This document shows positions 4,356 through 39,928 of a DNA stretch of 64,000 bases, one piece after another. The position numbers and the translations under genes were made by a program. Numbering within the stretch: the stretch's first letter is position 1; each line of letters begins with the position of its first letter. The notes beneath the pieces were generated by a model, which did not search any database, was not told where the DNA came from, and saw only the letters and a program-made list of their open reading frames with translations. The stretch spans positions 50,034,001 to 50,098,000 of the forward strand of contig NC_134468.1 in assembly GCF_964194025.1 (NCBI RefSeq), written 5' to 3'. Origin of the DNA: Convolutriloba macropyga (taxonomy: Eukaryota).

Positions 4356-4441
4356 GTGCACAGGAGCTCCAAGAGACCCTGAGAGATGGTGTGTATCTGT
4401 GCAATCTGATCAACTGCATACAAGATGGATCTGTCAAAAAG
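4356..4441 (+). CDS. Host calponin/transgelin-family gene, internal coding exon (CH domain)
   Basis: tttttcAG acceptor ending at 4355. Phase-1 exon reads (x)AQELQETLRDGVYLCNLINCIQDGSVKK, the CH-domain L(K/R)DG.xLC.L.N motif. GT donor at 4442 (phase 0) matches the exon at 30211. Not in the ORF track. Confidence 0.85.
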
Positions 4442-12837: not shown

Positions 12838-13510
12838 GGAACCAATCATTAAATACGCAGTGACTGTGTTGAATTTTTCTAAGACTTACAAGCTTTTGGC
12901 GGTATATGCAGTGAAAAAATTTTAGAGTTAAAGATGCATATTTGACCGCTTCTAACTTTCGATTTAATTGGTTTATAAAAAAGGGTAATAAATGCGTTGG
13001 CAGAACTGAACAAAATATTGCATTATCGGTATTCATCACAATTGACAGAATTATTTCTTACATAGGGGTTTTGTTTCTAACCACTGTAAACGCAAACAAT
13101 TGCTCCTTCTCGTTCACTTTTTGTCATACACCCCCTGATATTCCTAGTATTGTGTGCTGGTCATCACTTGACTAGTTCCACTGGGACCTATCGCGATGAC
13201 ATGTCAAGTTGTTTGTTTTTCTTCTGAGTGGCATAACTATTAATTGATTATTTTGAATCAACATGGGTTCTAAAAGCCTTCAGGGTATTCCTTGAAACAT
13301 ATCACTTTTGAGCCTTCCAGTCGTTACGGCGCAGCTAAGTTGTGTATAGAAAAAGATTAACCGTTATCGTAACAATGTATTTATTGTGGTAGCTGACAAG
13401 TAACAAAAAACTCATGTCACGATGTTATCCAATACATGTTTTTCACTATATTGTTTTCACATTCATTGCCAACGCAAGCCTTACAAAAATTCTAATCGGT
13501 AAAGGATGTC

Positions 13511-13633
13511 AGTAGTAAGATAATAGGGTACTAAGATAGGGGGGGTTATCCTTCGAATTAATACGTGTGATAATAGGGGGTTATCCTTGGCGGCGCTACA
13601 TGTAAAACAACGGCCGTGCGTGATACATGTAAA
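13511..13633 (+). repeat. Left terminal inverted repeat (123 bp)
   Basis: Reverse complement of 29941-30065 except a G7 vs G9 run. Internal repeats ATAGGGGG(GG)TTATCCTT x2 and TACATGTAAA x2. Confidence 0.97.
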
Positions 13634-13699
13634 TTGGCATGTAGGTTGTGCGGAAAAGCCTGACTAGAGTCATTTTTGAGTGAGCGTTCATAAAATCAT

Positions 13700-14113
13700 A
13701 TGGCTACAATTGCTACAGTTGATTTGAAGAGTATTCACAAAACTTATAAGGAAATCGAAAAAGAATATTCACAATACGGTGAACGGTTTTTATACTTTTT
13801 AGCTACTTGTCTTCATTTGGATCCTGAGATTGATTTAGATATAGCTTTGAAACTACGACCCTATGGTGGTTTGATTGGCATCGACAATTCAGCCCTCGAC
13901 AAATATTTTAAATCGTTCAAAGTTTTGAGACTGCATGCGATACTTCACGACGCTTCCGGTTTTGTATATGAATATAGTGAAAAGGGTCCAGGCTATTCCT
14001 ACGTATTACCTTGTTCAGTCACAAATGAGTACCTTGGTCATGTGACTGGAATTGCTTTTTGTTTATACGTAAAATCCTTCAAAAATAGTTTATTCAATTT
14101 GCTGGAATGTTGA
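13700..14113 (+). CDS. Polinton accessory protein with HxxxHD motif (possible PLA2/DUF1353-like fold), 137 aa
   Basis: Intact ATG ORF, first gene after the TIR; PYGGLIG...LRLHAILHDASGFVY...GPGYSY. Function is inference. Confidence 0.7.
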   Translation: MATIATVDLKSIHKTYKEIEKEYSQYGERFLYFLATCLHLDPEIDLDIALKLRPYGGLIGIDNSALDKYFKSFKVLRLHAILHDASGFVYEYSEKGPGYSYVLPCSVTNEYLGHVTGIAFCLYVKSFKNSLFNLLEC

Positions 14114-14691
14114 AATCTGGAGCAGTTGTTCTTGATTTTGAAGGCTTTAGAAGTAAAAAATCTGGATTTATAATAAAAGAACTTGCGGTATCTACCAAAA
14201 ATTACAACGATACAATTTCGTTTTTACCTCCAAACTCATTTAACATACTTTCTTCGAGTGAGCAAAGATCTTTCCTGTGGGTATCTAAATTTCTTCATGG
14301 TCTCTCGTGGGAGACAGGAGAGTACCCTTATCATTATTTGCAACAGATTTTTCAAAGTATAGTTCTTCGATTTCCCTTTTCTGATTTTTACGCAAAAGGA
14401 TTAGAAAAAACGGAAACTTTACGGCAGCTGTTACAGAGGAACGTTATCAACTTGGAAACTTTGTTTTGCCCAAAAATTGAACACTTGAAATTATATCGGG
14501 AGACACCAGTTTGTAAGTTACATGCATTGAGTTGCCCAAAACGACAAAGAAGCAAGCATTGTGCCAATAAGAAGGCAAAACTTTTTTACCAGTGGCTGAC
14601 GAATGAATCGTCGGTTGGAGAAACCAGCTCCGTCTCTACTTCAAGTGAATTTGTCTCCAAATTTGACAGTTTACAGTTGCATAACGCCTGA
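14107..14691 (+). CDS. DEDD/DnaQ-family nuclease, Maelstrom/arenavirus-NP-like, 194 aa
   Basis: VVLDFEGF...IKELAV ExoI-like motif; CxxH (CKLH) and HCA near the C-terminus. Confidence 0.75.
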   Translation: MLKSGAVVLDFEGFRSKKSGFIIKELAVSTKNYNDTISFLPPNSFNILSSSEQRSFLWVSKFLHGLSWETGEYPYHYLQQIFQSIVLRFPFSDFYAKGLEKTETLRQLLQRNVINLETLFCPKIEHLKLYRETPVCKLHALSCPKRQRSKHCANKKAKLFYQWLTNESSVGETSSVSTSSEFVSKFDSLQLHNA

Positions 14692-14932
14692 AAATCAGTT
14701 AACGGTTACTCTTATCAAGGAAGAAAAAATTGACACAAGAGGGCAAACAGTTTTAAGAAAACAGCAGATCGTGTGTGCTGGTGCTGAAATAGAAGCTTTC
14801 AAGAAGTATCTTTCTCTACTGGAGTACTTTCAATTGTACCATGTCTTTACAAGAGAAAATGAAAAGGTTGAAACTAACCCCTTTACCTACGCCCAAGCGT
14901 GCAGTGCCAATTCTGATGTCTCTGGACGATGA
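14603..14932 (+). CDS. Polinton hypothetical protein, 109 aa
   Basis: ATG ORF overlapping both neighbours in a compact same-strand block; no motif recognised. Confidence 0.5.
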   Translation: MNRRLEKPAPSLLQVNLSPNLTVYSCITPENQLTVTLIKEEKIDTRGQTVLRKQQIVCAGAEIEAFKKYLSLLEYFQLYHVFTRENEKVETNPFTYAQACSANSDVSGR

Positions 14933-15095
14933 GACTCTTCCCGATGAAATCAAGCAGCTGATTAAAGAGAACAATGTAGAGTCAATTGTTTTTAGAGATA
15001 AACAAGATTCGATGAATGCAAACTATACAATCACTTACAAACAAGGAGACAACGACTCTGGATATGTTTTGTATGAATTTTTTATTGTTGAATAA
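14841..15095 (+). CDS. Polinton hypothetical protein, ~84 aa
   Basis: ATG ORF whose TAA stop lies inside an AATAAA (15091-15096). Confidence 0.55.
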   Translation: MSLQEKMKRLKLTPLPTPKRAVPILMSLDDETLPDEIKQLIKENNVESIVFRDKQDSMNANYTITYKQGDNDSGYVLYEFFIVE

Positions 15096-15147
15096 ATATG
15101 TAACATTCTTGAAAAGCAATTCATTTTTTGAATAATTTTGTTTCAAA

Positions 15148-15423
15148 ATGAGTCAAACCGAAGATCAACTAGATTCGGGCGGAGGCATAACTGACATGGT
15201 TTTTGACGCTGACCACCAAGAAAGACGATCTTGGAGGTTTTGCAATTCGAGATTGCCTCGATCAGAGGTTGTATACTTTACACAAATCTTAATAATAATT
15301 TTTCTTATAACTGTGTCTCTCGCCAAGTTGGTTTTTTTCAGTCTCGACTGTGAAGAATCCACATTTTGGTTTTCACTTCTCTCTTGTACAGTTGGATACG
15401 CTCTTCCAAATCCAAAGTTATGA
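15148..15423 (+). CDS. Small membrane protein upstream of the ATPase, 91 aa
   Basis: Two hydrophobic segments (VVYFTQILIIIFLITVSLAKL; FWFSLLSCTVGYALPNP); stop overlaps the ATPase start (ATGA). Confidence 0.8.
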   Translation: MSQTEDQLDSGGGITDMVFDADHQERRSWRFCNSRLPRSEVVYFTQILIIIFLITVSLAKLVFFSLDCEESTFWFSLLSCTVGYALPNPKL

Positions 15424-16160
15424 ATAAAATTATTTCCACCTCTGACCGGTTGTTCATGGCTGTTTGCGGGCCATCTTGTTGCGGGAAAACTGAGCTCATT
15501 TTCAAAATGTTATTAGTTGGCACTTTTTTCCCAGAATTTCAAACAATTTATTATTTTTATCAGCACGATCAGCCCAAATTCCAATCGTTAGAGAAGAAAC
15601 TGAACATACATTTTAAAAAATTCTCTAATTTTGAACTCATTTCAGAGTTAGACAACTGCCTCCTTGTGTTCGATGACTCATGTGAAGAAATTTTTAATGA
15701 CAAAGAATTTTCAAAATTAGCAACCGCAGGGCGACACAGAAACATCAGTGTAATTTATGTTAAACACAATTTGTTCCAGCAAAGCAGATGGTCCAGAACA
15801 ATTGATCTAAATACAACACATATCATATTGTTTAAATCACCGCGTGACACACAACAGATTACTTTTATTGGTAGACAGTTGAATAACTCTCAATTTTTAA
15901 AAGAAAGCTATGAGCTGGCAACTAAAGAACCGTTTGGTCATTTATTAATTGATTTGGATCCCAAAACATCAGACGTCTTGCGCTACTGTTCAAATATTGT
16001 TCCTCCAGGACCATCAATTTTTTATCTGCCATCAGCTAAAGCCGTTATTACAAGTTTAAGCGATGAGAGAGAAAGAAGTTTGTATGCTGGGGCAGCTGCT
16101 AAACTTATCGGACACAAAACTAAAAGAGAAGATAGAGAGAGCTCCAAATCATTTCATTAA
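15420..16160 (+). CDS. A32/FtsK-HerA-like DNA packaging ATPase
   Basis: Walker A GPSCCGKT, Walker B LLVFDD, GRHRNISVIYVKHNLF. First ATG is at 15420 (the track used TTG at 15366). Confidence 0.95.
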   Translation: MNKIISTSDRLFMAVCGPSCCGKTELIFKMLLVGTFFPEFQTIYYFYQHDQPKFQSLEKKLNIHFKKFSNFELISELDNCLLVFDDSCEEIFNDKEFSKLATAGRHRNISVIYVKHNLFQQSRWSRTIDLNTTHIILFKSPRDTQQITFIGRQLNNSQFLKESYELATKEPFGHLLIDLDPKTSDVLRYCSNIVPPGPSIFYLPSAKAVITSLSDERERSLYAGAAAKLIGHKTKREDRESSKSFH

Positions 16161-16362
16161 ATTCCTTTGCGAATGTTTGCTCAACATTGTCAATGGTAAT
16201 GTTCCAATACGAAAAAGTTTTGTCCAAGGCTATGAAAAATCATTCAGAAAACTATTGTCTAAACAAACAAGTTTGAAAGAAAAGAGGCAACTTTTTGCTA
16301 GAGAAACAGATTTGGTCAAAACTGTTGGTTTCGCTTGTTATCGTTATTTGACAAAATCGTAA
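16063..16362 (+). CDS. Small basic Polinton protein (CECxLNxxxGNVP type), ~99 aa
   Basis: FLCECLLNIVNGNVPI motif of the kind seen in the gene after the ATPase in animal Polintons; TAATG coupling to the next gene. Confidence 0.8.
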   Translation: MREKEVCMLGQLLNLSDTKLKEKIERAPNHFIKFLCECLLNIVNGNVPIRKSFVQGYEKSFRKLLSKQTSLKEKRQLFARETDLVKTVGFACYRYLTKS

Positions 16363-17108
16363 TGCACACCGAAGAATTCATTTTAATTCCAAAACGAATG
16401 TTTGCTTCACATCAACCGGTAAAAAAAGAAGTTTTGGACAATCCCCTTTACAAACAGAAAGCTGCACAGCTGTCTCTTTTGCAAAGAAACCAGTCGAATT
16501 CAATGGAAAAACCAGAGAGAGCAGTTGAACCAGTTGAGACTGCAGACAAAATGATTGAAACAGCAGAAGAGGAAAAAACAGAACCCATGAGCGAAGACAG
16601 CGAGATTGAACCAGTAGTGAAAAAACAAAGAAAAAGCGAAGATTTCGACTCCATATTGTTAGAGCTAGATTTTATGAATAAAAACCAAATCAAAAGATCA
16701 AAAATCATACTTGACTTGATTAACCAATCTGAAACAGTAACTGTAGAGTCGAACGACGTTCTTCACGTAAATAAAGAAAGACTGGGCATTAAAGCTTCAA
16801 CATTTCTGTACAATCTGCAGCAACCAACTAAAAAAATTGACATTGAAAAATACTCCAAAATTTTAATTGCTCTTAATATCTCACCTCATCTTGTTGCAAA
16901 TACACATGCCAAGCAAATCTTGGAAGCCTCGTCTGAAAGTGAACAAGAGTTTTTCCCAAGTAGAGAACAACCCAGTCGGCAAGAGCTCTTCTCTAGTAGA
17001 GAACAACACAGTGGCTCAAAACCAACCCAAAAAAGATATAAAGAAGAACCGGACCAAACGACAGACGAAGAAGAGACCAGTCAGAAGATGTGGTCTTTCT
17101 TTTCCTGA
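16362..17108 (+). CDS. Polinton hypothetical protein, 248 aa
   Basis: ATG at 16362 overlaps the upstream TAA; acidic low-complexity segments; 36-nt internal tandem duplication (QEFFPSREQPSR/QELFSSREQHSG). Confidence 0.8.
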   Translation: MHTEEFILIPKRMFASHQPVKKEVLDNPLYKQKAAQLSLLQRNQSNSMEKPERAVEPVETADKMIETAEEEKTEPMSEDSEIEPVVKKQRKSEDFDSILLELDFMNKNQIKRSKIILDLINQSETVTVESNDVLHVNKERLGIKASTFLYNLQQPTKKIDIEKYSKILIALNISPHLVANTHAKQILEASSESEQEFFPSREQPSRQELFSSREQHSGSKPTQKRYKEEPDQTTDEEETSQKMWSFFS

Positions 17109-18011
17109 AGTAAAAAAATTGGATCAGTTTTATTTAAAAGGACCAGCATCGTATGGAAGCATAAAGCGGTTACAGACGCAAAGCAAGCTCCCTCTAGGTA
17201 AAATTCAGTCCTATTTGGAGACAAAGCCGTCTTTCACAAAGTACCGTTCAATTCGATTTTTCCCAGGCTTAAAGTTTTTGTAAAAGACATCAACGAAATT
17301 TGGTCTCTGGATTTGGCACACGTTGATAAACTGGCAAAGTATAACCGCAATATAAAGTATCTTCTAGTAGCGGTTGATTGTTTGTCAAGATATTTACGAG
17401 TGGAACCAATGAAAACAAAGTACGCAACCGAAGCAGCTGAAGCATTCAAAAAGATGATCAAAAACAAACAACCCGAAAAAGTATGGGTTGACGATGGTAC
17501 AGAATTTCTTGGAGCATTCAAACAATTGTGTACCAAACGTGGAATTCATTTATATAATACCTTTAGCGAAAAAAAGTCAGCTTTTGCAGAGAGGAACATT
17601 AGATCTCTCAAAAAGATAATTCATCGGTATCTTGAAGAAAAGTGGACCTATAGCTACATTGACCAATTAGACCAATTTGTGAAAACAATCAATTCAAGAG
17701 TCAATCGAATAACAAAAACTGCTCCTAACAAAGTTACAAAAACGGATGTGCCACGACTAGTGTCATTGGCAGCACAAACAAGCTCAACCCAGAAGCCCAA
17801 GTTTTACATTGGAGACTTTGTGAGAGTAGTTAAAAAAGATAAAGCTTTCAGGAAAAGTTATATGCAATCATTCACAGACGAAGTCTTTGAAATAACGGGA
17901 ATACCGACATTAAGCCCACCAACATACACCTTAGCCGACGCAAACAAGGAACCAATTCAAGGAAAATTTTACCAACCAGAATTACAACTTGTCAGGCTCC
18001 CTCTTGTTTAA
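16906..18011 (+). pseudogene. Retroviral-type (RVE, DDE) integrase with a frameshift near 17257
   Basis: N-terminal part LDQFYLKGPASYGSIKRL...TKYRSIR is in one frame. FPRLKVFVKDINEIWSLDLAH...VWVDDGTEF...AFAERNIRSLK...GKFYQPELQLV is in the -1 frame. The only upstream in-frame ATG is 16906, so the start is uncertain. Confidence 0.9.
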
Positions 18012-18012
18012 A

Positions 18013-18897
18013 ATGTCCACCAACCGGTTTGAAGACGAGTTTACAGTTCACGTTGTTTCATCAGCTTCAATGGAAATATTTGATACAAATACACTTGCAT
18101 CATTTCGGAATTTTTTCAGTGATGAAATTCAACTTGCAGGTGATTGGAGAGTGGCGCTAAGTGAAATCATATTCCCAACCAAAATAGAAAACATAGTAAA
18201 CGGAAATCTAATTGCGTACAACTTAAAAGACTTTGAAGATTCCCAAAAGATTTCTTCGGGAGCCAATGTTATTTCTAGACCTTATAGTGGACAACAATTT
18301 AGTTTTATGCCAGGAACCTTTGATACAGTGGCTCAACTTCTTGCTACAATTAAGCGCACAATTGGCCTGCCCCATTTTTCATTCAGAGAGTTGAAGAGCT
18401 CTGGGAAATATGAAATTTTATTTGGCAAGTATGAGGGAATTACGTTTCCCAGCGAAGAAATTCCCAGCATTATTGGATTTAAGGGTATTCCTGACGGCAA
18501 TGGAATACACATTGGGTACAAAATGATTCCCAATGCGAACAGGTTTATGAAAAGTGATGATACGAAAGCTTTTTATGGGGAGTTCCCAGCTGACCTTTGT
18601 GCTGGAAAACATCTAATTTTCATATACACCAACATAATTGAATACCAATACGTCGGTGACACTAAGGCTCCTCTTTTGCGAGTCATTGATTCAAAACAAC
18701 GTCTGAAAAACGGTAGTGTTTGTGAGCTTGAACCCACTCATAGGATAGTTTTTACAAATTTAGACTATAAGAAGCTCCTAACTAACACAATTCAATCGAT
18801 TTCAATCGAACTGAGAACGGAAACAGGACAATTAGTTCCCTTTTCGGGAACTGGAAAAGTTATTCTAACACTACAATTCAAAAAATTTTCCCCTTAA
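18013..18897 (+). CDS. Minor capsid protein (penton, single jelly roll)
   Basis: FTVHVVSSASMEIFDTNTLASFRN...WRVALSEI and FIYTNIIEYQYVGDTKAPLLRVI are typical of Polinton minor capsid proteins; ATG at 18013. Confidence 0.9.
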   Translation: MSTNRFEDEFTVHVVSSASMEIFDTNTLASFRNFFSDEIQLAGDWRVALSEIIFPTKIENIVNGNLIAYNLKDFEDSQKISSGANVISRPYSGQQFSFMPGTFDTVAQLLATIKRTIGLPHFSFRELKSSGKYEILFGKYEGITFPSEEIPSIIGFKGIPDGNGIHIGYKMIPNANRFMKSDDTKAFYGEFPADLCAGKHLIFIYTNIIEYQYVGDTKAPLLRVIDSKQRLKNGSVCELEPTHRIVFTNLDYKKLLTNTIQSISIELRTETGQLVPFSGTGKVILTLQFKKFSP

Positions 18898-19320
18898 ATG
18901 GATTCTTATTATGCCAATCAAGCAACGTCTTTGCCTCACTTCTCTGGACATTATCGTCAAAGAGGAAGTGGTTTTGGAGCTCTAGCTGCAGGCATTGGAC
19001 GTGTTGCGCTACCTTTAGCACGTCGTTTCATTTTGCCTACAGCGAAGCGTATCGGGAAAGAGCTATTGAAACAAAGTGTTCCAGAGATTTTGGATGTAGT
19101 CGGAAGCAAAAAATCTCCTAAACAGGCGTTTAAAAATACAATCTCAAAAACTGTCAAAAAACAGACAGGAGGATCTCGCCGAAATACTTCACGTCGGAGG
19201 AATTCAATACGAGTCAAGCCACAGAAAGCAATCAACAAACGCAAAAAAACCATTTCAACGCACAGAGCTCCAAAAAGAAGTCGGTCAGATTTTTTTGCCA
19301 GAGTGAACGATGATCGCTAA
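18898..19320 (+). CDS. Basic virion core / membrane-active precursor protein, 140 aa
   Basis: YYANQA...QRGSGFG followed by an amphipathic helix; QTGG then an Arg/Lys-rich tail; lies between the two capsid genes. Confidence 0.85.
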   Translation: MDSYYANQATSLPHFSGHYRQRGSGFGALAAGIGRVALPLARRFILPTAKRIGKELLKQSVPEILDVVGSKKSPKQAFKNTISKTVKKQTGGSRRNTSRRRNSIRVKPQKAINKRKKTISTHRAPKRSRSDFFARVNDDR

Positions 19321-20620
19321 TTTGTTACCATCAGAGGCAACTCACAGTTCTTTGGATTTGTTCGAAAAACCTTCTCTCTTAGTAACTTTCGATGGTAGTT
19401 TTTGTCAAAAGGTGGGCCCAGTCTACAGTCCAAATGGACCCATGTTAGAATTTGAAGTCGCCGGTGACCGAAATAATTTTATTGACTTACAGAAAATTTT
19501 CTTGGAAGTGAAATGTAAAATTGTCCAGTTATCAGAAGCTGATTTGAGATATGACGCAGGAGCAGCAACAGATGTTACGAAGACAGATGCTCCCTATTTT
19601 TGCAATAATGTTTTACATTCACTCTTCTCTGACTGTACAGTGTCTGCTAATGGACTAAAAATTTCAAACGCTAACGGAAACTATGCTCATAAAAGTTTTA
19701 TTGAAACAGAATTTTCACATAACAAAGATGCAAAAAACACCTGGTTGGCATGTCAGGGCTATTCCTACGAAGAAAATCCAGGAGCGTTGTCAACTGTAGA
19801 AGTGAACAGAAGGAAAGCCCTAGTGAGGCAATCGGCTGAGTGCACATTTTACGGTAAAGTTGCAGTTGACTTTTTCACTTGTGACAGACATTTGCTAAGT
19901 GGTGTGACACTTCGCATTGCGTTTAGACGGTCAATAGATGATTTTGTTATAATGTCTGACGATGCAGCCAAGCACTACAAAGTAAAAATTGTCGAAGCTA
20001 ATTTATATGTGCGCAAAATGACATTGAACGATGATGTCGTATCGGCTATAGAAAAGACTTTGTTAAAAAGTCCAGCTTCGTATCCCTACTTGGAGACTCT
20101 AACAAAAACATTTCTGGCATCAACGGGTCTCCACAGTTGGAAACAAGAAGATATTTTTGCCAGAGAACCGATTCGTAGACTAGCAATTTGTCTGAACACT
20201 AACGAAGCGTTTCTTGGTAACAACAGACAAAATCCATTTAATTTCCGCAAATTCGACCTTGAGCAGATTTATATTTACCGAAACGGTTTACCTGTGGCAG
20301 ACAGTCCAATATCAACAAGTGATGACAAACGTCTCTACTTTAATACAATATCGGATTTAGCTTACATCGACAATGGTCATGGAATAAGTTTGACAGATTA
20401 CCCGAACCATTTCATAATGGTTTTTGATTTGACCAGTACCCAACAAGCATCCCATGATTTTATTCACCCTGAGCTTACAAATTCGTCAATTTCTATTGAG
20501 TTGAAATTTTCTGCGGCCCTACCGAACAATATAGAGATTTTCATTATTGGCGAAAAAGCGAGCACAATTTTTGTTGATAGTGCAAGAAGAGTATCAAAGA
20601 ATCACATTCTGACAAATTAA
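19310..20620 (+). CDS. Major capsid protein (double jelly roll), 436 aa
   Basis: SSLDLF, NNVLHSLFS, NPFNF, FDLT motifs; size and position typical of Polinton MCP; intact. Confidence 0.93.
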   Translation: MIANLLPSEATHSSLDLFEKPSLLVTFDGSFCQKVGPVYSPNGPMLEFEVAGDRNNFIDLQKIFLEVKCKIVQLSEADLRYDAGAATDVTKTDAPYFCNNVLHSLFSDCTVSANGLKISNANGNYAHKSFIETEFSHNKDAKNTWLACQGYSYEENPGALSTVEVNRRKALVRQSAECTFYGKVAVDFFTCDRHLLSGVTLRIAFRRSIDDFVIMSDDAAKHYKVKIVEANLYVRKMTLNDDVVSAIEKTLLKSPASYPYLETLTKTFLASTGLHSWKQEDIFAREPIRRLAICLNTNEAFLGNNRQNPFNFRKFDLEQIYIYRNGLPVADSPISTSDDKRLYFNTISDLAYIDNGHGISLTDYPNHFIMVFDLTSTQQASHDFIHPELTNSSISIELKFSAALPNNIEIFIIGEKASTIFVDSARRVSKNHILTN

Positions 20621-21054
20621 TGATGGATGAAGATGATATTAATGATTTAATACAAGGCTGCAAAACTCTTAAATACAAATTTCATGGCGTGTTTGCGGCC
20701 AACAACTTTCCGGAAAAAATGAACAGAAACAGCTTCCTTATTGTTAATGCAGCAACTGCTGAAAATATTGGCACCCACTGGTTACTTTTATGCAGAAAGA
20801 ACAATCAACTTCTGTTTGCCGATCCCCTTGGTCGGTCCATTTCATCGTACAAACACCTATATCAAAGAATCATTTCTGTTGGCAACAATCATAATATCTA
20901 TCAACTCTTGGAGAATCAACCAATTCAAAGTGCAAACTCTAAACTTTGTGGACTGTTTTGTATTTATATTGCTCATTTTGTTTTCAATGCTCAAAAACTT
21001 GTAAATATTAGCGATAATGAATTGATTCGTTTTGCTTTTCATATGATGTTCTAA
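20620..21054 (+). CDS. Adenain-like cysteine maturation protease, 144 aa
   Basis: GTHW (His), ADPLG (Asp), Q...CGLFC (oxyanion Gln and catalytic Cys). Confidence 0.95.
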   Translation: MMDEDDINDLIQGCKTLKYKFHGVFAANNFPEKMNRNSFLIVNAATAENIGTHWLLLCRKNNQLLFADPLGRSISSYKHLYQRIISVGNNHNIYQLLENQPIQSANSKLCGLFCIYIAHFVFNAQKLVNISDNELIRFAFHMMF

Positions 21055-21085
21055 CCTTACTAACTTGAAAAATTTATTTTTTTTT

Positions 21086-21781
21086 TCAAAACTTTACTTT
21101 TTCTTCATACACAAAGCGAACACTCAATAAATCAGAATCAATATTCAATTTTCCATATCCACTCAAAAAAATATCCATAATTTGACAAAAAGCACCAGAA
21201 TGAGGACCATACAAAATTGTTTCAACTCTGCGTAAAGTTTCACTATTGACAAAATCAGTTTGAATTTGTTTTGATGGAGGCCGGCAATTGTAGATAGTCT
21301 TTTGGGTAACTACTGGCATCTTGGCACTCGTTTTGGGATTGACATTTGTTTGTTTTGCAGAGCTGCTTTTCGATAAATTGTTGTTGTTGTTAGCAAAAGC
21401 TGGTAGTCGTTTGCGCACTGACTGCGAATCAATTTTTTCTGCAGAACTGTTGAAATCGATTGCTAATTTAAGCTTTGAAAACACATCTCCATTAGTCTCC
21501 AAATTTGGTGCAGTCCAAAACAGGAACTTAAAAGCTGTATAAACACAAGGCACAGGAAAGCTTTGAAATCGTTTCAATGTTTCGTTTTCAAAAGTAGTTG
21601 TATCAATCAAAACGTGATAATGGCTATTTACTAAATTGCAAAATTCGGAATCAAAATGTGCACACACTGCATAACAATTTCCAATTGAAAAGGTAGGTTT
21701 CTCTTCCACAATGAGAAATTTGAACTGTTTCTGAAATTGTTTAAAGTAATTTGGAGAACGCTCAAACATCGCTTCAACCAT
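21086..21781 (-). CDS. Polinton accessory protein with HUH-like motif (HYHVLI), ~231 aa
   Basis: ATG at 21781 overlaps the stop of the PC4-like gene; CYAVCAH...SHYHVLIDT...VYTAFKFL; minus-strand AATAAA at 21073-21078. Confidence 0.75.
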   Translation of the reverse strand: MVEAMFERSPNYFKQFQKQFKFLIVEEKPTFSIGNCYAVCAHFDSEFCNLVNSHYHVLIDTTTFENETLKRFQSFPVPCVYTAFKFLFWTAPNLETNGDVFSKLKLAIDFNSSAEKIDSQSVRKRLPAFANNNNNLSKSSSAKQTNVNPKTSAKMPVVTQKTIYNCRPPSKQIQTDFVNSETLRRVETILYGPHSGAFCQIMDIFLSGYGKLNIDSDLLSVRFVYEEKVKF

Positions 21782-22091
21782 CGTTGTTGACAACTTCTTT
21801 TTGAATTTTTGGTTTCTTCGCTGGTGGTGGTTTTGGCGATGACTGCTGATCAGCCACTGAGTTCTTTATTTTGCTAGCTGAACTGACCAAATTTTCAAAT
21901 TCTCCAAGAGTTAACGAAATTCTCTGTTCAAACTCGTAATCGTCTGTTGCTTTTTTGAACAATTTCAGAAATACATATGTCCCTGTCCTTTCATAGGTTT
22001 TCAGCGTTGCCCTGATTAAGCGCTTATCAGTTTTGGAAATATCGAAATAACAATCTCCAAACTCAGTGTCTTTAGTGGACGTGAAAGGCAT
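21774..22091 (-). CDS. PC4/Sub1-like ssDNA-binding protein with C-terminal NLS, ~105 aa
   Basis: Beta-rich core ending ISLTLGEFENL, resembling the PC4 GISL..EW..L signature; PPAKKPK NLS-like motif; first ATG at 22091. Confidence 0.75.
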   Translation of the reverse strand: MPFTSTKDTEFGDCYFDISKTDKRLIRATLKTYERTGTYVFLKLFKKATDDYEFEQRISLTLGEFENLVSSASKIKNSVADQQSSPKPPPAKKPKIQKEVVNNDG

Positions 22092-22311
22092 AGTGTGCAA
22101 CTTGTTTTATTACTTTCAAGTGTTATAATGTGTAAAAAGTACAATTCAATGGGAGCGGCAAGTTGGGATTAAACAAGTGTCGTCAAACTGCCTAATTAAA
22201 TCCAAATGATTTGTGAATACAGTCTCAAGTACGCCTATGGCGTACTTGAGTCTGTCTGTTGTTCAAGTATTGTATAATTAATTTCAGCTGTGACCTTAGA
22301 TAAGACAAAAA

Positions 22312-22690
22312 AACATATGTGACGCTAGGTGTGTACTTGAACCAGCAGTGCAGTGTACACTGTTTATTATATGTGGACCATATGTTTATAATTTGGAACA
22401 CATGTGACCCTAGTGTGTACTTGGACCAACGGTGCAGTGTACACTGTTTATTGGAATTGTCCATATGTTTATAACTTGGAACACATGTGACCCTAGGTGT
22501 GTACTTGGACCAACGGTGCAGTGTACACTGTTTATTGGAATTGTCCATATGTTTATAACTTGGAACACATGTGACCCTAGGTGTGTATTTGACGTCATTG
22601 TAGTGTACATTGGTTATTGGAATTGACCATATGTTGAACAGATGTGACCCTAGGTGTGTATTAAAATTAGAAACACATGTGAACCTACAG
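22312..22690. repeat. ~84-bp tandem repeat array rich in palindromes (about 4.5 units)
   Basis: GTGAC(C)CTAG anchors at ~22319, 22404, 22487, 22571, 22644. Core units contain CAGTGTACACTG, CACATGTG, CCTAGG, CATATG and TTATAA. Confidence 0.9.
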
Positions 22691-23056
22691 CAGTAGGGAA
22701 ATTTTGATAAGATTAAACATGTACCAGTGTACAATGAAATGCTGATAATAAAATGCGTTCTAGATAAGAATTGAGTTAGTACACACAATAGACTGTATCA
22801 ACCCATGTATAATAACTTAGAGCATATAACAGAGCATATACACTACCAAAAACAAAACCAAATTTGACCCCACACATAAATTGTCGAATTACACGTTGTA
22901 TAATACAACTTTAGAACTAGGTATTCATTTTCTTTAAACCTTGCGTTCAGTGCACTTTGCTTTCTTTCAAGAGTTCGTTACTAGACAAACATTATTTTTC
23001 AACCGTCTTTTATCAAATTGGTTTTAGTTTCTTTCTTAAAATTTGTGCAAAAAATT

Positions 23057-23752
23057 ATGTCAGTTCAAATACTTGCTGAATCTGTTATTTCTTTCGAGCG
23101 AACATTGGTTTATCAGACAGTGTTCGAAAACTTTGTTGTGCTGATTCAACAGAAGAGACAAGGTGATGTTTGGCAAACTTACCAGCACTGTTTGATACCT
23201 AAGCTTTTTATTAACGCAATTGCTTCTTTACCAGAGAAGACAGAACCAGCAGAATGCAGTGTTATTACATCAGGGGGACATTTACCTCCAAAAGCGTTGC
23301 CAAAATTTCAACATCTTGAAATGGAGTCATTACAAGACGACGTTAAACGAGTTTTGTTTCGTTACGATTGCGACTGTGTGCCTCTGTTTGAAAACCAGCT
23401 AGGGGCTTATCAAGCTTGCGAAAATTTAGGTGACATGTGGGGCATAAAGTCATCACCTTACTCCCCAGAGAACCAATCGCAATTGGATTCAGTCAGCTTG
23501 CCAGTAACACCAGCAGTTGATCCGAGTCCCAGTTTGACACCGACATCTAGTCCATCTCTCTTTGCTGGAATTCACAAGAACAATTCTACCGCTCTGCTCA
23601 GTGAAAACCAGTTTGATACAGCGTTACTTTCAGCTACACAATTTCAAAAACCAGAACCAGCACGTGTTTTTGGCGTTACAGACACGCCAAAGATTTGCAA
23701 TGCACCAAAGAAACGGCTACCTGAGAATTCTTTAATGGACTTATTTGATTGA
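23057..23752 (+). CDS. Polinton hypothetical protein with Ser/Pro-rich C-terminal half, 231 aa
   Basis: ATG at 23057 (the track used TTG at 23018); AATAAA at 23816. Confidence 0.7.
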   Translation: MSVQILAESVISFERTLVYQTVFENFVVLIQQKRQGDVWQTYQHCLIPKLFINAIASLPEKTEPAECSVITSGGHLPPKALPKFQHLEMESLQDDVKRVLFRYDCDCVPLFENQLGAYQACENLGDMWGIKSSPYSPENQSQLDSVSLPVTPAVDPSPSLTPTSSPSLFAGIHKNNSTALLSENQFDTALLSATQFQKPEPARVFGVTDTPKICNAPKKRLPENSLMDLFD

Positions 23753-25421
23753 CTTGAAAAACTTTGATGAATCACCACCATTTTATATTGTGAGACGCTA
23801 ACTTGATTTTGTTTCAATAAAGTGTGATGTCAACTTTTTGAATTTAACTTTTAATATCTGTTTTGTAGATTTAAATCTGCTGAGCCAAAGAAATTATAAT
23901 TTCTCTACTGATCAAGTTCGAACATGTTCAGAAGGGGTTTTAATTATGACGTAAACATTCGTTTCCTAACAAACCCTCAATTATTGCAACTACTGTGACG
24001 TGGTGTGAGAATTATATCCATAAATACTTTTCTCAATCTACGAAATTTTTGTTAGCATTATATTAAAAATGAAATTTAAGAGATATAGCCATAGGTTAGA
24101 GTAAGCGGTATTGACGCTAATGACATGCTAACTTCATACCACAGCTGTAGCATGGACTGAATTCCAATTTCAATTCATAAGTTGAAGAAATGTTGAAAAA
24201 AAAAGAAAAACAATCAAAGAAAATTTTCGAAAAAATACCTTTCAAACGTCAATTTTTGAAACTTATCTCAAAAGATGCGCTCTCCAGCTTACACTAGAAT
24301 CACCTCCCATTTGTTACTTGGGAATCAAGTGAAAGAAAAAGAGCATGTTTGTTAAAAAAAATCAAAAAAAAGTCAATAAAAAAATTTTTTTTTGACACAT
24401 GACCTCTGACATTTGACCCTAAAAAAGAGGGCTCCAAAAAATACTTGGGATGAAACTGATTGTTTAGTAAGCCTCAGCATACTCTAAAGTACAAAACATC
24501 TCATCACACTCGTCAAATTTTACTCATCCGTTATGGAGATAATTAGCCCCTAATTAGCGACTAATTAAGGGTTAATTAACCTAATTACTAATTACTGAAA
24601 AAAAAATTTCAAATTTTTGCAACGGATTTTTTATCACCGCTTGATGCCTGACATAATTGCTCATAAGCATCATCATCAAAAAATGGCTCCTTCACCGATT
24701 TTCAAAACATCTGGCAATCAATGTCACATTAACATCTGGCATTAATTAGCATATGAAGTACCCTAAGGAAAGATGTTAGATCGGCTTTCTTCACATTTTT
24801 GGACTTGATGGATCCTCAGTGCAAATTTATCTCATAACAGCTGTCATCAAAAAAGGCCTCAGAAAAAAGACACATGTTTATGTCATGTAATTGTCATGTA
24901 ATTGTTAATTAATGACTTGATTGACAGAAAAATAAACTTTTTTTCTGTTTATTTTTGAGCAATTTTTTCATATGGGTCCTATGTTTTTCGGCACGGGGAG
25001 CATTTTTGCTCATCACACTTAAGAACGTAGGACAACTCTAACCACCCGTAATTGAAAATGCATAAAATAGCGCATTTTATTACAATTTTAAAAATTATCA
25101 TGTTTTTCCAGCTTCTCCAAAAACGTTTTTTGAAAAAAAAAATGACCAGCAATACTCTGTAGGGCTCCTTATGGTGATATATTCTGGCATAGGATTGCAA
25201 TGGAGATTTGAAAACACATCTTTTTTCTCTCATAACTAACAAAATTTCGAAATAAAGGTAACCGCCAAAACCGACCAATCAGATTGCAGCATTTTGAAAT
25301 TTTGAATTTCGCGCACAGAAATTACATTCGTGTTTCAGTTTTGGTGAGCTTAGTCATTTCCGAGTTATTTACTTGTTATCAAAGTTCTGTTAGAATTTGA
25401 AATTCATCAAAACTATTAGAA

Positions 25422-28400
25422 ATGGTCTATTCATGCAACTTCTGTGACGCTACGTTTAGCACTCGTGGGAACCGTTCAAGACATCAACATAAATTCCATC
25501 CAGACGATGTTGGCCTTCCTGTTTACAACTGCTCCCTATGTGTGTTCAATTCACGGAAACTGTCTGAATTGGAACAGCATATGCGAACTTGCCACTCGAA
25601 GTTTACAAACTGCTGCCGATCGTGCTTCATGGGATTCAATGATGCGCACTTGTTTGCGCAGCATATGAACTCCCTTCACTCGCTGCCGGTATTTGGACCT
25701 GAATACCAACCGAAAGAGGCTACAGCGGAGACAGCCTTCAACGGTGTGTTACAAACTTATGAAATTGTCAATAACACAGCTGACAGAGATCTTGAGAGCT
25801 TCATGCTCAATCAAAGATCTGCAATTGCAACGCTAATTGAGCAAAGGCTGAGCCAAGGACCACAGAAAGTACAATTTGCGGTAAAAGTACAGTTATTGAA
25901 GCTGCATCAAGATGAAAACGCAACCGAAACGGAGGAGCGCATTGAAATTTATGCCAACTCCCTCATGACGCCCATTTACGTAGAGGGTCTCACAAACGAG
26001 TTGTACTGGAGCATGGTGGAGAAAATGATGGCTGTCTTGTCTACGTTTGCTTCATCTGGAAGTGGTTGAGTTGTTGAAAAAATAATCAAACTTGACATCA
26101 AATTTGCCCGCTACCGACCAATTCGCGGCTCATCCTATCTTGCCTTACCCCATAAGCTCGCAAACTGTCGCGGATTACTCAACATTCGAAACCACGACGA
26201 TGCCAATTGTTTCAACTATTGCTTCGTGGCAGCGTATCATGCGCATCATGGAATCAGTCTTGATAGAGATGACAGGAACTATCATATTGACAAAACATCC
26301 CCAGCAACATATCAGCAAGAGAACATTCACCAACCTGTAGGCGAATTTGAAATGCCAATGGCATTTGAGCAAATGAAAGCCTTTGAAACCCTCAATGATG
26401 TGGCAATCAACGTCTTTGGTTACGATAAAGGACAACTTTACCCTCTACGAGTCTCCTCTTTTGAATCAGATTTTGTTATGGATCTTTTACTTCTTTATGA
26501 TGCCGACATTTATCACTATGTTCTCATTACTGACCTTGTGAAAGTCGTTTGTAAAGTTAGAGACCTGAAATTCAGATTTGGTTATCGCATTTGTCGTAAT
26601 TGTTTCTGGTTGTGTCGTGATGGACTGGAAAGCTATAATATTCATACTGAAAATTGTTATCTAAATGCCCCTGCAGTTATTCAAATGCCATCACCAGATA
26701 AAAATGAATACAAGTTCTCAAATTTTTCAGCTACGTGGTTTGTTCCTCTGGTCATTTATTTTGACTTTGAATCTTTTCTCATACCCGTCGCTGGATGTGA
26801 TGCAGCAACTGACCAATCATCAACACGCGTGATTGAAAAGCACGAGCCATGTGGATTTGCTTTGGCAGTTGTTGATCATCACTCGAACGTTCCCTATTTT
26901 CATCATGTGGACAGCTCAGAAGATTGTATGGGCAACTTTGTTCGAATGCTGCATTCGTTAGCAAGGGACATACATGAACGCAAAAAACAGTTTCCTTTCT
27001 ACAACGGAAGTCGGAGAAGCTTGGACAAAAAGAGCGCTACACACTGTTGGATATGCGAAGAACCATTTGACAGCGATCTTGACCCCGAAGAGAGCATAGA
27101 TTTAGACCATTGTCATTTTAGTGGCCAATTCTTGGGCTGGGCACACGAAAAGTGTAATCGAGCGAGACGGTATGTCAATTTTACGCCTGTGGTCGGTCAT
27201 AACATACAAAACTATGACTTACATCATATTTGTCTTGCTCTGAACAACTGTGAGTCTACCACAACAATAAAAATCATTCCGTCAACAGATGAGAAATACA
27301 TATCAATGACATTCGGAGTTCTGATTGATACTATTACAACTCAAGAAGGAAGAACACAAAAAATTTACGAGTATTTAAGATTCATCGATTCGTACAAAAT
27401 GATGAACAGTTCGCTGGAAAAACTTGTAGAAATTTTACCTGACACACATTTCGATATCATGAAAGCAATGTTCCCGTCGGTTTCCGAATCAAACGCACAC
27501 TTACTCAAACAAAAAGGATATTATCCTTATACTTATGTATGTGATCGTACAAAGTTTTCTGAGCAATCTCTACCACCCCTCTCAGAATGGCGCAATACAT
27601 TAGAAGGCGGAAAATTGGCTGTTAGTGAAGAAAATTTAGGTCATGCTAACCAAATGTGGACGTTATTGGGGTGCAAAACTTTACAAGACTATCATGACGC
27701 ATACCTTAAACTTGACTGCGCACTATTAGCTTGTGTATGTGAGTTTCACCGTGAACTTAGCTTTCGAACATACAAACTCGACTGCATGCATTTCTACACT
27801 CTCCCCAATATGGCAAAAGAAGCGTCACTAAAGATATGCAGGGCAAACATTGAGCTGATGACAGAGCGAGAACATTTGGACATGATTGAACCGGCAATAC
27901 GAGGAGGAGTAACATCTGTTTACGAGGAGCGTCATTTTGTTGCAAATAATAAGTATTTATCGGATTACCGGCCCTCTGAGGAGTCAACTTTTGCGCTCTG
28001 TGTAGACGCAAATAATCTCTATGGAGGTGTCATGCAAATGGACATGCTACCAGTGGGGGAATTCGCCTTCAACGTAGAAATTACCCTTAACGAAATCCTC
28101 AATACCCCTAACGACGCTTCAGTTGGTTATTTTCTTGAAGTAGACTTAAATTACCCTGTCCACTTACACGATGACCACCGAGACTTTCCGCTTGCCCCTA
28201 CCAAAGAAATTGTTCAAGATGATTGGTTGGGCGAATATCAACTTGAGCTAAAAGAACAACACAGATTACCCAGCTCGAATGTTAAAAAGTTGCTTCAAAC
28301 GCTATTCGACAAAAAGAACTATGTATTGCATTACAAACTGCTCAAATTATACGTTAGTCTTGGATTAATTGTTGCCAAAGTACACCGTGTCCTACAGTTC

Positions 28401-29771
28401 AAACAAGCGAATTGGTTAGCGCCCTATATAACACTCAACAGTAATAAACGTCAAGCCGCCAGCAATAAATTCGAAGAGAACTTTTATAAGCTCATGAACA
28501 ATGCAGTATATGGTAAGAATTGCGAATCGAAACGCAGACGAAGTAAGCTTACCATTGCACGAGATGCTGATCAAGTTCTGAGTTCCATTTCAAAGTTTGA
28601 GTTTGATCGGTTCATGATATTCGGAGATAACCTGGCCGCATTGTCATTCCGCGCTAGAAAGATTTATTGGAATACCCCAACAATAATTGGAGCAACTATA
28701 CTTGATCTGGCCAAGTATCAAATGTACAGTTTCCATTACTTCATAATGCGCGCTCATTTTGATTGTCGTTTGTTATATAGTGACACGGATAGTTTACTAT
28801 ATAAAATCAGGAGTACAGACTTTTATGAGGAATTAGCAAGAAAGCCCGCTTCAGTTGTTAGTGAATTCGATTTCTCCAATTATCCGAATGATCACTATTT
28901 ATACAGTACGGAAAATAAACGGGTAGTCCTCAAGTTTAAGGACGAATTTGCAGGAGATTTTATTACGGAGTTTGTGTGTTTAAAGCCGAAACTATACTCA
29001 ATACTCTCAAAAAGTAAGTATTCTTTGTCTTTTCTAATGCATGTTAGTTCTATCTTTAAATTACAAAGGTTGTTAGTAGGCTCCTGAATGGTATTAGTTT
29101 TATTATTATATACATAGGGGTTAGTAAACATATAAAGACTTGATTAAAGGCTTTTTTTCTCTTTAGGTTGTCGAAAACTTTCGGCTAAAGGAGTAACAAA
29201 GGCCGCTCAACAACGTCTCCGGCATGATGATTTCTTGAGCACACTGACAACAGGGAACGTGTTTCGCACTGAAAACACAAGAATAATGTCCGATCATCAT
29301 GTATTGGAAACTGTTACTACCAACAAAATATGCCTTTCAGCGTTCGACAACAAAAGGTTTATTCTACCCTGCGGAACAAAAACTCTACCCTTTGGACATT
29401 ATGAGACCGTTGATTGTGGTGTGGATGAAATTGATTGGGGTAGTGATGATATTCAGTGGGATAATGACAGTTACTCAAACTTACTTCTCAGCTCTAGTCC
29501 AGAATGGGATAATGACTTTGTAGTGTCCCAAACTTCCTCAACAGCCGCTCTCTCAGTGCCAGACTCCACCACCAGCTCTTGGGAGACTCCCGACCCAGGA
29601 TTAGTAGTAACTGAGCAGATAACTGAATCTGATATTGATACTGACGATATTGCAGATATTGACGCCAGTTCCAGTGAAAGCTCCTCTCCTGACAACCCCT
29701 TCATAAACTTTGAAGCTGAAGAAGCAAGCAGCAGCGAAGAAGAACCAGCACGCAAAATAAGACGGCGCTAA
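25422..29771 (+). pseudogene. polB: Protein-primed family B DNA polymerase; two exons (25422-29013, 29167-29771) and one premature TGA at 26067-26069
   Basis: Three C2H2 fingers, then GSG*VVEK continuing in the same frame. OTU-like NCF...HYVLI segment, ExoI YFDFES, EndoVII-like CWIC...DHCH...CN, ExoII HNIQNYD, PolA DANNLYG, PolB KLMNNAVYGK, PolC YSDTDS. After splicing: SAKGV...DNKR...TLPFGHY. Confidence 0.95.
29014..29166 (+). other. Spliceosomal GT-AG intron in pPolB (153 bp, phase 1)
   Basis: GTAAGT donor; CTTTTTTTCTCTTTAG acceptor; in-frame stop inside. Removal gives KPKLYSILSKSCRKLSAKGV. Confidence 0.9.
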
Positions 29772-29940
29772 TGCCAATTTAATTGCATGCAATTTTGGTG
29801 AAACTGCGTGTAGTAATACACAGTGTAAATATTTAATTTGTTTGGAGTGTTTAGTTTGGTTTCAATTCAATCTTTTCTTACAAATCTAACAAACCGGAGA
29901 AAGGCGCAAAGGGAAAGGAATAAAAGCGGAAGAAAGCTAG

Positions 29941-30065
29941 TTTACATGTATCACGCACGGCCGTTGTTTTACATGTAGCGCCGCCAAGGATAACCCCCTA
30001 TTATCACACGTATTAATTCGAAGGATAACCCCCCCCCTATCTTAGTACCCTATTATCTTACTACT
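29941..30065 (-). repeat. Right terminal inverted repeat (125 bp)
   Basis: Reverse complement of 13511-13633; followed by the GATGTC TSD. Confidence 0.97.
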
Positions 30066-30210
30066 GATGTCAGAATTTTGATGCAGTTTGGTTATCGGTG
30101 GTGAAATTTGTTTTCACCGCAAGTTAGTTGCACTAAAAAATTTGGTGCTAGTTTTTGCCCATGAAAAGAGTGCAGCATCACTTTGTTTTTGGATGATGTT
30201 ATTTTCACAG

Positions 30211-30370
30211 ATAAACAAGTCCAAGATGCCCTTCAAGCAAATGGAGAACATCGGAAACTTCCTGGATGCATGTGCGAAATTTGGGGTGAAGCAGCACGAT
30301 ATGTTTCAGACAGTAGATCTTTACGAGGGCCAGAACATGTCACAAGTAGTCAATGGCATTTACGCTCTAG
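30211..30370 (+). CDS. Host calponin/transgelin-family gene, coding exon (C-terminal half of CH domain)
   Basis: ttttcacAG acceptor; INKSKMPFKQMENIGNFLDACAKFGV...DMFQTVDLYEGQNMSQVVNGIYAL(G). The donor appears to be GC at 30371. Confidence 0.92.
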
Positions 30371-30579
30371 GCTAGCTATTAATTTGGATTCAGTAAGCTC
30401 CCAATTGCACTAAAACTGATTTTTGTTAGTCAATGGCTTAACTATACATGACGGAGCACTAATGCTGTCTGTACTATCCTTCTATGCAAAATTTTGAATT
30501 AGCGTGGAAACTAAATTAAATTAGAAACTAGGTTAAGTAAATTTTGATGGTAACAAATACATAAAACTCAACAAGGAGG

Positions 30580-38700: not shown

Positions 38701-39743
38701 TAAACGAGTTTAATTTTGCGAAAAACTGGCAAAGTTATAATTCCAGAAGACTCTTGAAGCAAGCGGGAGTACAACTAGCTCTCATTTGGAGCTTACGAAG
38801 AATATATCTAGCTTTTAGGTGTCTACTTCCTGCAACTTTAGAGAATGTTGCTAAAAATTATATTTGGTTCCATTTTTAACGATAAAAGTCCGAATTTTGA
38901 AAAATATAGCATAAATTCTAGCCAAAAAACTCTGATCAAACAAATCAGCAGCCCTCCTCTAGCTTTAAAAATAGAACCAATAACACTACTGTTAACAATT
39001 CGGTCGAATGTTTACAAAACTTAAAACCTCGATACCCTGTAAAAGACGAAATTCAAAAATTCTTTTCAATTCCATATTCTACGCTGGACGGGATTTCTAA
39101 TGGAACCACTCAAAACTTTACGATGATTACATCGATCGGTCAAAATGACTGATCAAAAAACCCATTTGAGTATATAGTTCCTCCCCCCACTAAAAAGGGT
39201 CGGAACAATTAAAATATATTGAACTCAATTAATCGACCAATAAGGAATGTGCGTAGATACATTCCAAAAAATTAATTAACGTAGTTTAATGTGTTTTTCG
39301 ATTTTCTGGTTTGTTCCTGGGGCCAGGTGCCTTTTTATCCAAAATTTACCCAATACAAAATAAGCCACAGAAACTACGGAAATCGATCTCTGTCTGATCT
39401 TTGAGTTCAATAGTCCGACTGAAATTAATAATCTGAATCAAATTGGCATTTTCGTGAGCGGCAGTCATAGTGTGGATGTTTAATTTATTTGACCGTGATC
39501 GCGTTTTAGTCATTTGTCTACTCAGCTGTCCATTTCTATACAATTGGAATAGTTTGATTTCATTTGAAAGACACCTTTTGCATAGTAAGTATAACTCTTC
39601 TCGGGAAAAAAGTATTCGCTAGAACTTTTTCCCTATAAAGTTGATTCTAGAGACTGAAGCAACTCTGTACTGTCAGAGAACTAAAAATGGAAATGTGCCT
39701 GGTTGTCTTGACAATAATGGACAAGATTCTTTCGCGTTTACAG

Positions 39744-39928
39744 GACGAAGAGCTCAGAAGGTTGGCATGCCAGGCATTGGTCCGAAAGAGGCAGAGGAGA
39801 ACAAGAGAGAGTTCACCGATGAACAAATGAGAGCTGGCGATGGACTGATTGGACTGCAAATGGGTTCAAACAAAGGCGCCACTCAGGCCGGTCAGAATTT
39901 TGGAAAGACCAGGGCTGTCATTGATTAG
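39744..39928 (+). CDS. Host calponin/transgelin-family gene, last coding exon (calponin/CLIK repeat)
   Basis: tttacAG acceptor ending at 39743; (G)RRAQKVGMPGIGPKEAEENKREFTDEQMRAGDGLIGLQMGSNKGATQAGQNFGKTRAVID-stop, with a single calponin repeat. Confidence 0.93.

Follow-up and report, generated by a model that had tools for sequence, protein, structure and literature searches.

An intact 194-residue open reading frame (ORF) in a Polinton of Convolutriloba macropyga encodes a protein of predicted DnaQ/DEDD fold that very probably carries a zinc site of the Maelstrom/arenavirus type, with zinc binding read from the residue pattern. This pattern (ECHC) is given in the accessible text of PMC7968707 as common to Maelstrom and the arenavirus nucleoprotein (NP). 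The gene is, with high confidence, the accessory gene labelled 'MAEL' on maps of animal Polintons/adintoviruses, a link to the label that rests on position and host. The likeness to Maelstrom is already noted by virologists, and our additions are an active-site analysis, the recognition of two subfamilies and a set of truncated ichnovirus relatives. Since the likeness has been present as a map label since 2021, the value of this work lies in the active-site analysis and a testable hypothesis, not in discovery.

The Polinton and its genes

The window, by which we mean the whole analysed stretch of 64,000 nucleotides, contains a complete Polinton/Maverick (adintovirus) of 16,555 bp (16.6 kb) at 13511-30065, and the MAEL-like ORF (14107-14691) lies inside it together with a virus-like gene set:

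13505..13510 (+), left copy of the target-site duplication, GATGTC, 6 bp
13511..13638, left terminal inverted repeat, starting AGTAGT; its arms match over 100 nt at 98% and over 37 nt at 100%
13700..14113 (+), 137-aa ORF with an H-D motif, overlapping the start of the MAEL-like gene by 7 nt
14107..14691 (+), MAEL-like gene, 194 aa, intact; DnaQ/DEDD fold over about residues 5-170, then a low-confidence tail
15420..16160 (+), A32-type packaging ATPase (Pfam Pox_A32, above cut-off)
16867-17283, likely N-terminal part of the integrase, in a different frame
17313..18011 (+), retrovirus-like integrase (weak rve match; 34% to the integrase of metagenomic locus L017, which passes the rve cut-off)
19310..20620 (+), probable major capsid protein, 436 aa, from size and position
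20620..21054 (+), adenain-type maturation protease (Pfam Peptidase_C5, E 1.5e-7, above cut-off)
26352..29087 (+), pPolB (Pfam DNA_pol_B_2, E 4e-8, above cut-off)
29936..30065, right terminal inverted repeat
30066..30071 (+), right copy of the target-site duplication, 6 bp

The terminal inverted repeats are of the AG type and a perfect 6-bp target-site duplication lies outside them. Since the repeats are 98-100% matched and the duplication is perfect, the insertion is young. The capsid candidate shares 25% identity across 435 aa with the ORF that occupies this slot in another metagenomic locus (L018), and neither of these two ORFs matched Pfam. The coding regions of the integrase (16867-18011) and of the polymerase (26352-29771) consist of two ORFs each. 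The ORF at 13700..14113, which we take from its H-D motif to be PLA2-like (phospholipase-A2-like), matched neither Pfam PLA2 nor the PLA2X of L017. A basic core-like ORF at 18898-19320 is separate from it; Alpha adintoviruses have been described with both fused as PLA2X. Between its two divergent blocks of genes the element has a tandem array of about 84-nt units in 4-5 copies (22311-22687). On the minus strand at 21774-22091 there is a 105-aa ORF with no library match of note, which we presume to resemble a PC4-type ssDNA-binding protein.

The Polinton and some retroelement fragments are situated within introns of a host calponin/myophilin-type gene (window positions 4330-39925), of which we found CH-domain pieces near 4380 and at 30208-30372 and a calponin repeat at 39623-39925. 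Many diverged copies of the element were present in four sequencing runs of one study. At the left boundary the flank contigs of three of the four runs listed stop at 13512, and summed contig depth rises sharply at the element boundary, a depth sum that is not to be read as a copy number. None of the sequencing runs listed as holders is an RNA run, and they are uninformative on expression.

The sequence-only reading had described the gene as viral and as early. The virus in question is an integrated Polinton/Maverick; the label 'early' is unsupported, as relatives usually lie directly after the capsid gene. The MAEL-like gene is co-oriented with the packaging and capsid genes. It lies near the left repeat behind the PLA2-like ORF, unlike the post-capsid slot usual in its relatives.

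In Supplementary Fig. S2 of Starrett et al. 2021 (PMC8502044), the label 'MAEL' stands on adintovirus maps four times in the extracted figure text, once in the gene order Penton, Hexon, MAEL, and Ladona is among the hosts mapped there. We found a relative in Ladona fulva, and insect-clade relatives, which match the MAEL-like protein with a profile probability of 100%, are located directly after hexon, in the slot labelled MAEL. By term search the available main text of the same paper does not mention MAEL. In the available text of a 2026 Pannagram preprint (10.1101/2025.02.07.637071) 'mael' serves as a Polinton marker; in insects the gene is linked to one capsid-module type. The function of MAEL is not discussed in the accessible portions of either source, and a term search of the available text of 10.1101/2024.03.25.586562 and other polinton/virus papers returned no mention of MAEL or maelstrom. 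In the literature searched, mostly papers outside subscription, we found no functional or structural study of Polinton MAEL. Additional background was drawn from the accessible parts of PMC2628886, PMC8363768, PMC4553618, PMC10025437, PMC11131425, PMC11296320, PMC13269885 and PMC13618286.

Fold, zinc pattern and pocket residues

Sequence searches of Pfam, PHROGs, PDB sequences (phmmer and profile) and phage records gave no match for the MAEL-like protein. Its predicted model (mean pLDDT 92) has a DnaQ topology (RNase H-like), in agreement with the DEDD fold that had been proposed from the sequence. We compared the model with 48,161 PDB representatives and treated Z differences below 1 as ties. 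The exonuclease domain of DinG was first (Z 12.8, rmsd 3.1, 151 residues aligned), in a tie with Bombyx Maelstrom (Z 12.4, rmsd 3.3, 154 aligned), and Drosophila Maelstrom (12.0, 3.5, 155), 3'hExo (Z 11.5), ExoX (11.4) and Lassa NP (10.9, and 11.8 in a second comparison) were further down. When the model of an insect-clade relative was used, DnaQ epsilon came first (Z 13.1), with Maelstrom at rank 5 (11.8) and NP at 11.4. Ordinary DNA exonucleases are thus on top in both cases, tied with Maelstrom in the first and ahead of it in the second. Foldseek placed REXO2 and ExoX on top by E-value, whereas by TM-score the NP and Maelstrom chains were highest (up to 0.55) and other chains among the matches listed reached 0.50 or less. 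In the ESM Atlas the nearest named family was Maelstrom (0.89), with NP at 0.77, values that we use as leads only. The fold search, carried out on predicted models, places the protein in the DEDD superfamily and does not alone single out Maelstrom. The likeness to Maelstrom rests on the zinc pattern, with the ESM features as a lead, and not on the fold scores.

The ORF and its motifs are all where the sequence-only reading had put them. The protein contains D10-F-E12-G, E25 (in IKELA), C136-x2-H139 and H151-C152-A, the last of these within HCANKK; D10, E12, E100/K101, H151 and K156 are the pocket residues, and E25, C136, H139 and C152 make up the zinc-site pattern. Shuffling the protein 100,000 times never produced a loose form of the motif pattern, which was defined after the sequence was seen.

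We read the structural register from the end-points of the alignments, which assumes that there are no gaps near the ends. When model residues 3-173 are set against Bombyx Maelstrom 115-323, D10 corresponds to D122, E12 to N124, E25 to E137, C152 to C302 and K156 to R306; the 5AF0 row is shifted by one at its N-terminal end. The ECHC pattern is therefore in register with E137 and C302 of Maelstrom. Against Lassa NP 381-544 (model 2-167; numbering of D389, E391, H528 and D533 as in PMC3429428), D10 falls on D389, E12 on E391, G13 on G392, H151 on H528 and K156 on D533, and against DnaQ epsilon 7-180 (model 5-169) K156 falls on D167. In this register the fourth acid is replaced by Lys, as it is by Arg in Bombyx Maelstrom, which bears out the suspicion from the sequence that the last acid is lost in the manner of Maelstrom. 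According to the accessible text of PMC4408791, R306 of Bombyx Maelstrom is in contact with D122, and RNA is bound but not cleaved by this protein.

With K156 at the fourth DEDD position, D10, E12 and H151 are present and the full set of four acids and a histidine of an active DEDDh enzyme is absent. By motif reading we take the third DEDD position to be K101, the alternative being E100. Since the fourth ligand is Lys (or Asn) and the third is probably replaced too, an ordinary two-metal exonuclease is unlikely. Judged from these residues, the protein probably does not perform canonical two-metal DEDD catalysis. This weakens the earlier proposal that it degrades dsRNA.

The MAEL domain of Maelstrom (PF13017; 5AF0, 4YBG, 9NHC) and the MAEL-like protein have in common the DnaQ fold (Z 12.0-12.4, rmsd 3.3-3.5 Å, 154-155 residues aligned), the ECHC pattern, a D-to-E spacing of 15, the first Asp and a basic residue at the fourth DEDD position. 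They differ in that identity is only 13-14%, and the MAEL-like protein has neither HMG box nor linker helix (its fold begins at residue 6), falls about 40 residues short of the matched range and keeps E12 and H151. Maelstrom is also encoded by the host, whereas the MAEL-like protein is encoded by a mobile element. With the Lassa NP exoribonuclease (4G9Z, 3R3L) it shares the fold (144-146 residues aligned with Z of 10.9-11.8 and rmsd of 3.1-3.5 Å), a D-x-E-G motif, an ECHC-type zinc finger and the His that precedes the last Cys of the zinc site. However, NP has D389, E391, D466, D533 and H528 and digests dsRNA, while the MAEL-like protein has Lys at the position of D533; the NP domain is part of an RNA-virus nucleocapsid protein, and the MAEL-like protein stands alone in a DNA element. 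Ordinary DnaQ exonucleases (Pol III epsilon, S. aureus DinG, ExoX, ISG20) have the same core fold with equal or higher scores (Z 11-13) but possess four acids and no ECHC site. Our data indicate that the MAEL-like protein is closer to Maelstrom than to an active NP-type exonuclease, yet lies outside the Maelstrom family by profile and architecture.

Conservation, clades and ichnovirus relatives

A phmmer search of representatives clustered at 50% identity found 1,373 relatives with E<=0.001, and the best 150 of these 1,373 matches were taken further; a word search gave 93. A first alignment was reduced from 239 proteins to 130 covering the core and to 95 after an 85% redundancy filter, and these 95 together with 22 distant matches and nine ORFs from loci form an alignment of 126 rows. 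Across the 126 rows the zinc-site residues are well conserved (E25 in 124, C136 in 124, H139 in 107 and C152 in 124), as are D10 (122), K24 (120), H64 (119), K97 (123), E100 (107) and K101 (119). Position 156 is Lys in 75 rows, Asn in 44 and acidic in one, and position 101 is acidic in none. The full E-C-H-C set is found in 73 of the 95 proteins, the His being missing from one subclade. Because the Cys and His residues are conserved in homologs, the reading of the protein as Maelstrom/NP-type stands, even with ordinary exonucleases at the head of the structural matches. None of the 95 members matched the Pfam Maelstrom or arenavirus profile at E<=0.1.

The tree of the family has a single split. 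One clade of 72 rows, which includes the MAEL-like protein, has E12 and carries K156 in 71 rows and D10, E12 and H151 together in 65. The other, of 51 rows, has Q12; its named members are from insects, it carries N156 in 44 rows and H151 in two, and it retains the fold and the zinc pattern. The MAEL-like protein resembles the adintovirus MAEL in being a small accessory ORF of Polintons and differs in that this copy belongs to the clade keeping E12 and H151. We rejected co-evolution of positions 12 and 156: E12/K156 versus Q12/N156 amounts to one event on the tree, with one independent pair, and so gives no evidence of it.

These comparisons indicate that the gene is under constraint at the sequence level. 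Conservation of the pocket and zinc residues extends to relatives at about 26% identity, and three divergent pairs of relatives gave pN of 0.19-0.26 versus pS of 0.63-0.84, a fourth pair being near-identical and uninformative. All four variants listed within 14107-14691 are synonymous, and 204 further variants are spread over the stretch. The closest protein cluster has 44 members; of 15 near-identical copies compared from it, 12 are unchanged at all 14 key sites.

Longer forms were represented by five proteins, none of them a Maelstrom, which is weak evidence. Those inspected or annotated look like gene models merged with neighbouring Polinton genes or like duplications. A BIR (apoptosis-inhibitor) domain occupies the C-terminal end of one relative (P0206). 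In one locus (L015, 5838-6362) the MAEL-like gene is adjoined by an IAP gene in opposite orientation.

Scanning metagenomes, we obtained 20 loci, 15 of which contain one or more Polinton genes; the other five are contigs of 1.2-2.5 kb. In 11 of the 20, two of which look like one element, a capsid-like gene is directly upstream on the same strand, and three of these capsid-like genes are double jelly-roll by Pfam. Two loci carry two MAEL-like paralogues each (L016, 2-541 and 1153-1737; L018, 399-1295 and 2151-2492), and in the paralogue adjoining the capsid gene the pocket has diverged strongly. Scans of IMG/VR returned no locus with the protein query, one with a second alignment (A2) and none with a third (A3). 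The single locus (L001, 4018-4413) is a 4.8-kb viral contig whose lone relative, 131 aa long like GfV-D6-ORF1, stops short of the zinc-binding Cys/His segment.

In a viral structure library both models matched best to ORFs from two ichnoviruses, one ORF from Drosophila-associated adintovirus 2 and two entries without a name. In this structural comparison the adintovirus 2 ORF and GfV-D6-ORF1, GfV-B38-ORF1, AsIV-cont00151-ORF1 and AsIV-cont00163-ORF1 gave E-values of 1e-6 to 1e-13 at 20-39% identity, and AsIV-cont00150-ORF1 gave only 2.7e-3. The ichnovirus ORFs are 106-166 aa long and have no functional name in that library. As they are top structural matches in the viral library, they probably belong to the same family. 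This suggests, at the level of predicted models, that a polydnavirus gene family derived from Polinton MAEL genes; the ichnovirus copies may be relics.

Possible functions of the MAEL-like protein

We propose that the protein is a stand-alone DnaQ/DEDD domain, stabilised by zinc and probably dead as a nuclease, that would accommodate the end of an RNA, or an RNA duplex, in a pocket made basic by the conserved K24, K97, K101 and K156. Element transcripts or dsRNA might in this way be shielded from the piRNA/siRNA machinery or from dsRNA sensors; alternatively, the protein might compete with host Maelstrom. A counter-defence role of this kind against host RNA-based defence, argued from analogy, is a serious possibility that we put forward tentatively. 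Against a dead pocket, the E12 clade keeps D10, E12, E100 and H151, more than an inactive site requires, and the usual position of the gene within the virion-gene block speaks against counter-defence.

In the accessible parts of reviews, Maelstrom is described as an RNA-binding part of the target-engaged PIWI complex with GTSF1 that contacts target positions 23-25. Because Maelstrom assembles with PIWI and GTSF1 at the target RNA, a shorter version that lacks the HMG box could act as its competitor. Such a mimic would replace host Maelstrom in the PIWI-GTSF1 complex or cap the piRNA-target duplex, without recruiting effectors. By analogy this version is conceivable, and we consider it unlikely. 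If it were true, a DNA virus that integrates into the germline would be disarming the very pathway by which it is silenced, and pieces of this gene would have been taken up by the ichnoviruses of wasps.

The protein could instead bind nucleic acid within the virus life cycle, in the virion core, in protection of genome ends or in handling of late transcripts, and have no anti-silencing role. Its place directly after a capsid-like gene in just over half of the loci is consistent with this, as are the overlap with the PLA2-like gene, the direction shared with the packaging and capsid genes, the basic core (pI 9.5) and the tie to one capsid-module type in insects. However, MAEL is not shown in many adintovirus maps, with four labels in the available figure text, and is therefore probably not essential. 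The different position in the Polinton described here and the stand-alone relatives on ichnovirus segments also count against a purely internal role, which we regard as rather unlikely but a genuine competitor.

It is also improbable that the protein is an active RNase of atypical kind, with Lys standing in for one metal in the E12 clade, that would trim the ends of dsRNA or small RNAs, much as dsRNA is destroyed by arenavirus NP to avoid sensing; this is the earlier proposal of dsRNA degradation. Retention of D10, E12 and H151 in most E12-bearing relatives, the frequent E100 and the presence of G13 at the position of Lassa G392 would fit such an enzyme, and Drosophila MAEL reportedly cuts ssRNA without the DEDD residues. 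Against it, an acid is found in none of the 126 rows at position 101 and in one at position 156, and Bombyx Maelstrom, which is basic at the fourth position, is inactive. Moreover, the Q12 clade lacks E12 and nearly always H151, yet has kept the fold and the zinc pattern. The remaining idea, that the gene is a captured nuclease in decay and has no present function, draws on the lost catalytic acids and the many truncated relatives, but it is largely refuted by the conservation of the pocket and zinc residues, the excess of synonymous over replacement change and the near-identical copies intact at the key sites, and we consider it very improbable.

For the tentative counter-defence proposal, the setting is of interest. 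Large Polintons that integrate into the germline keep spreading in spite of piRNA control, and a conserved Maelstrom-like gene borne by the element itself is an obvious candidate for a counter-measure. The protein is small, about 170 residues, and easily expressed. After Maelstrom and arenavirus NP, its family is the third to have the ECHC-type DEDD fold, in this case in a DNA virus, and such a fold in a DNA virus bears on the origin of the arenavirus domain.
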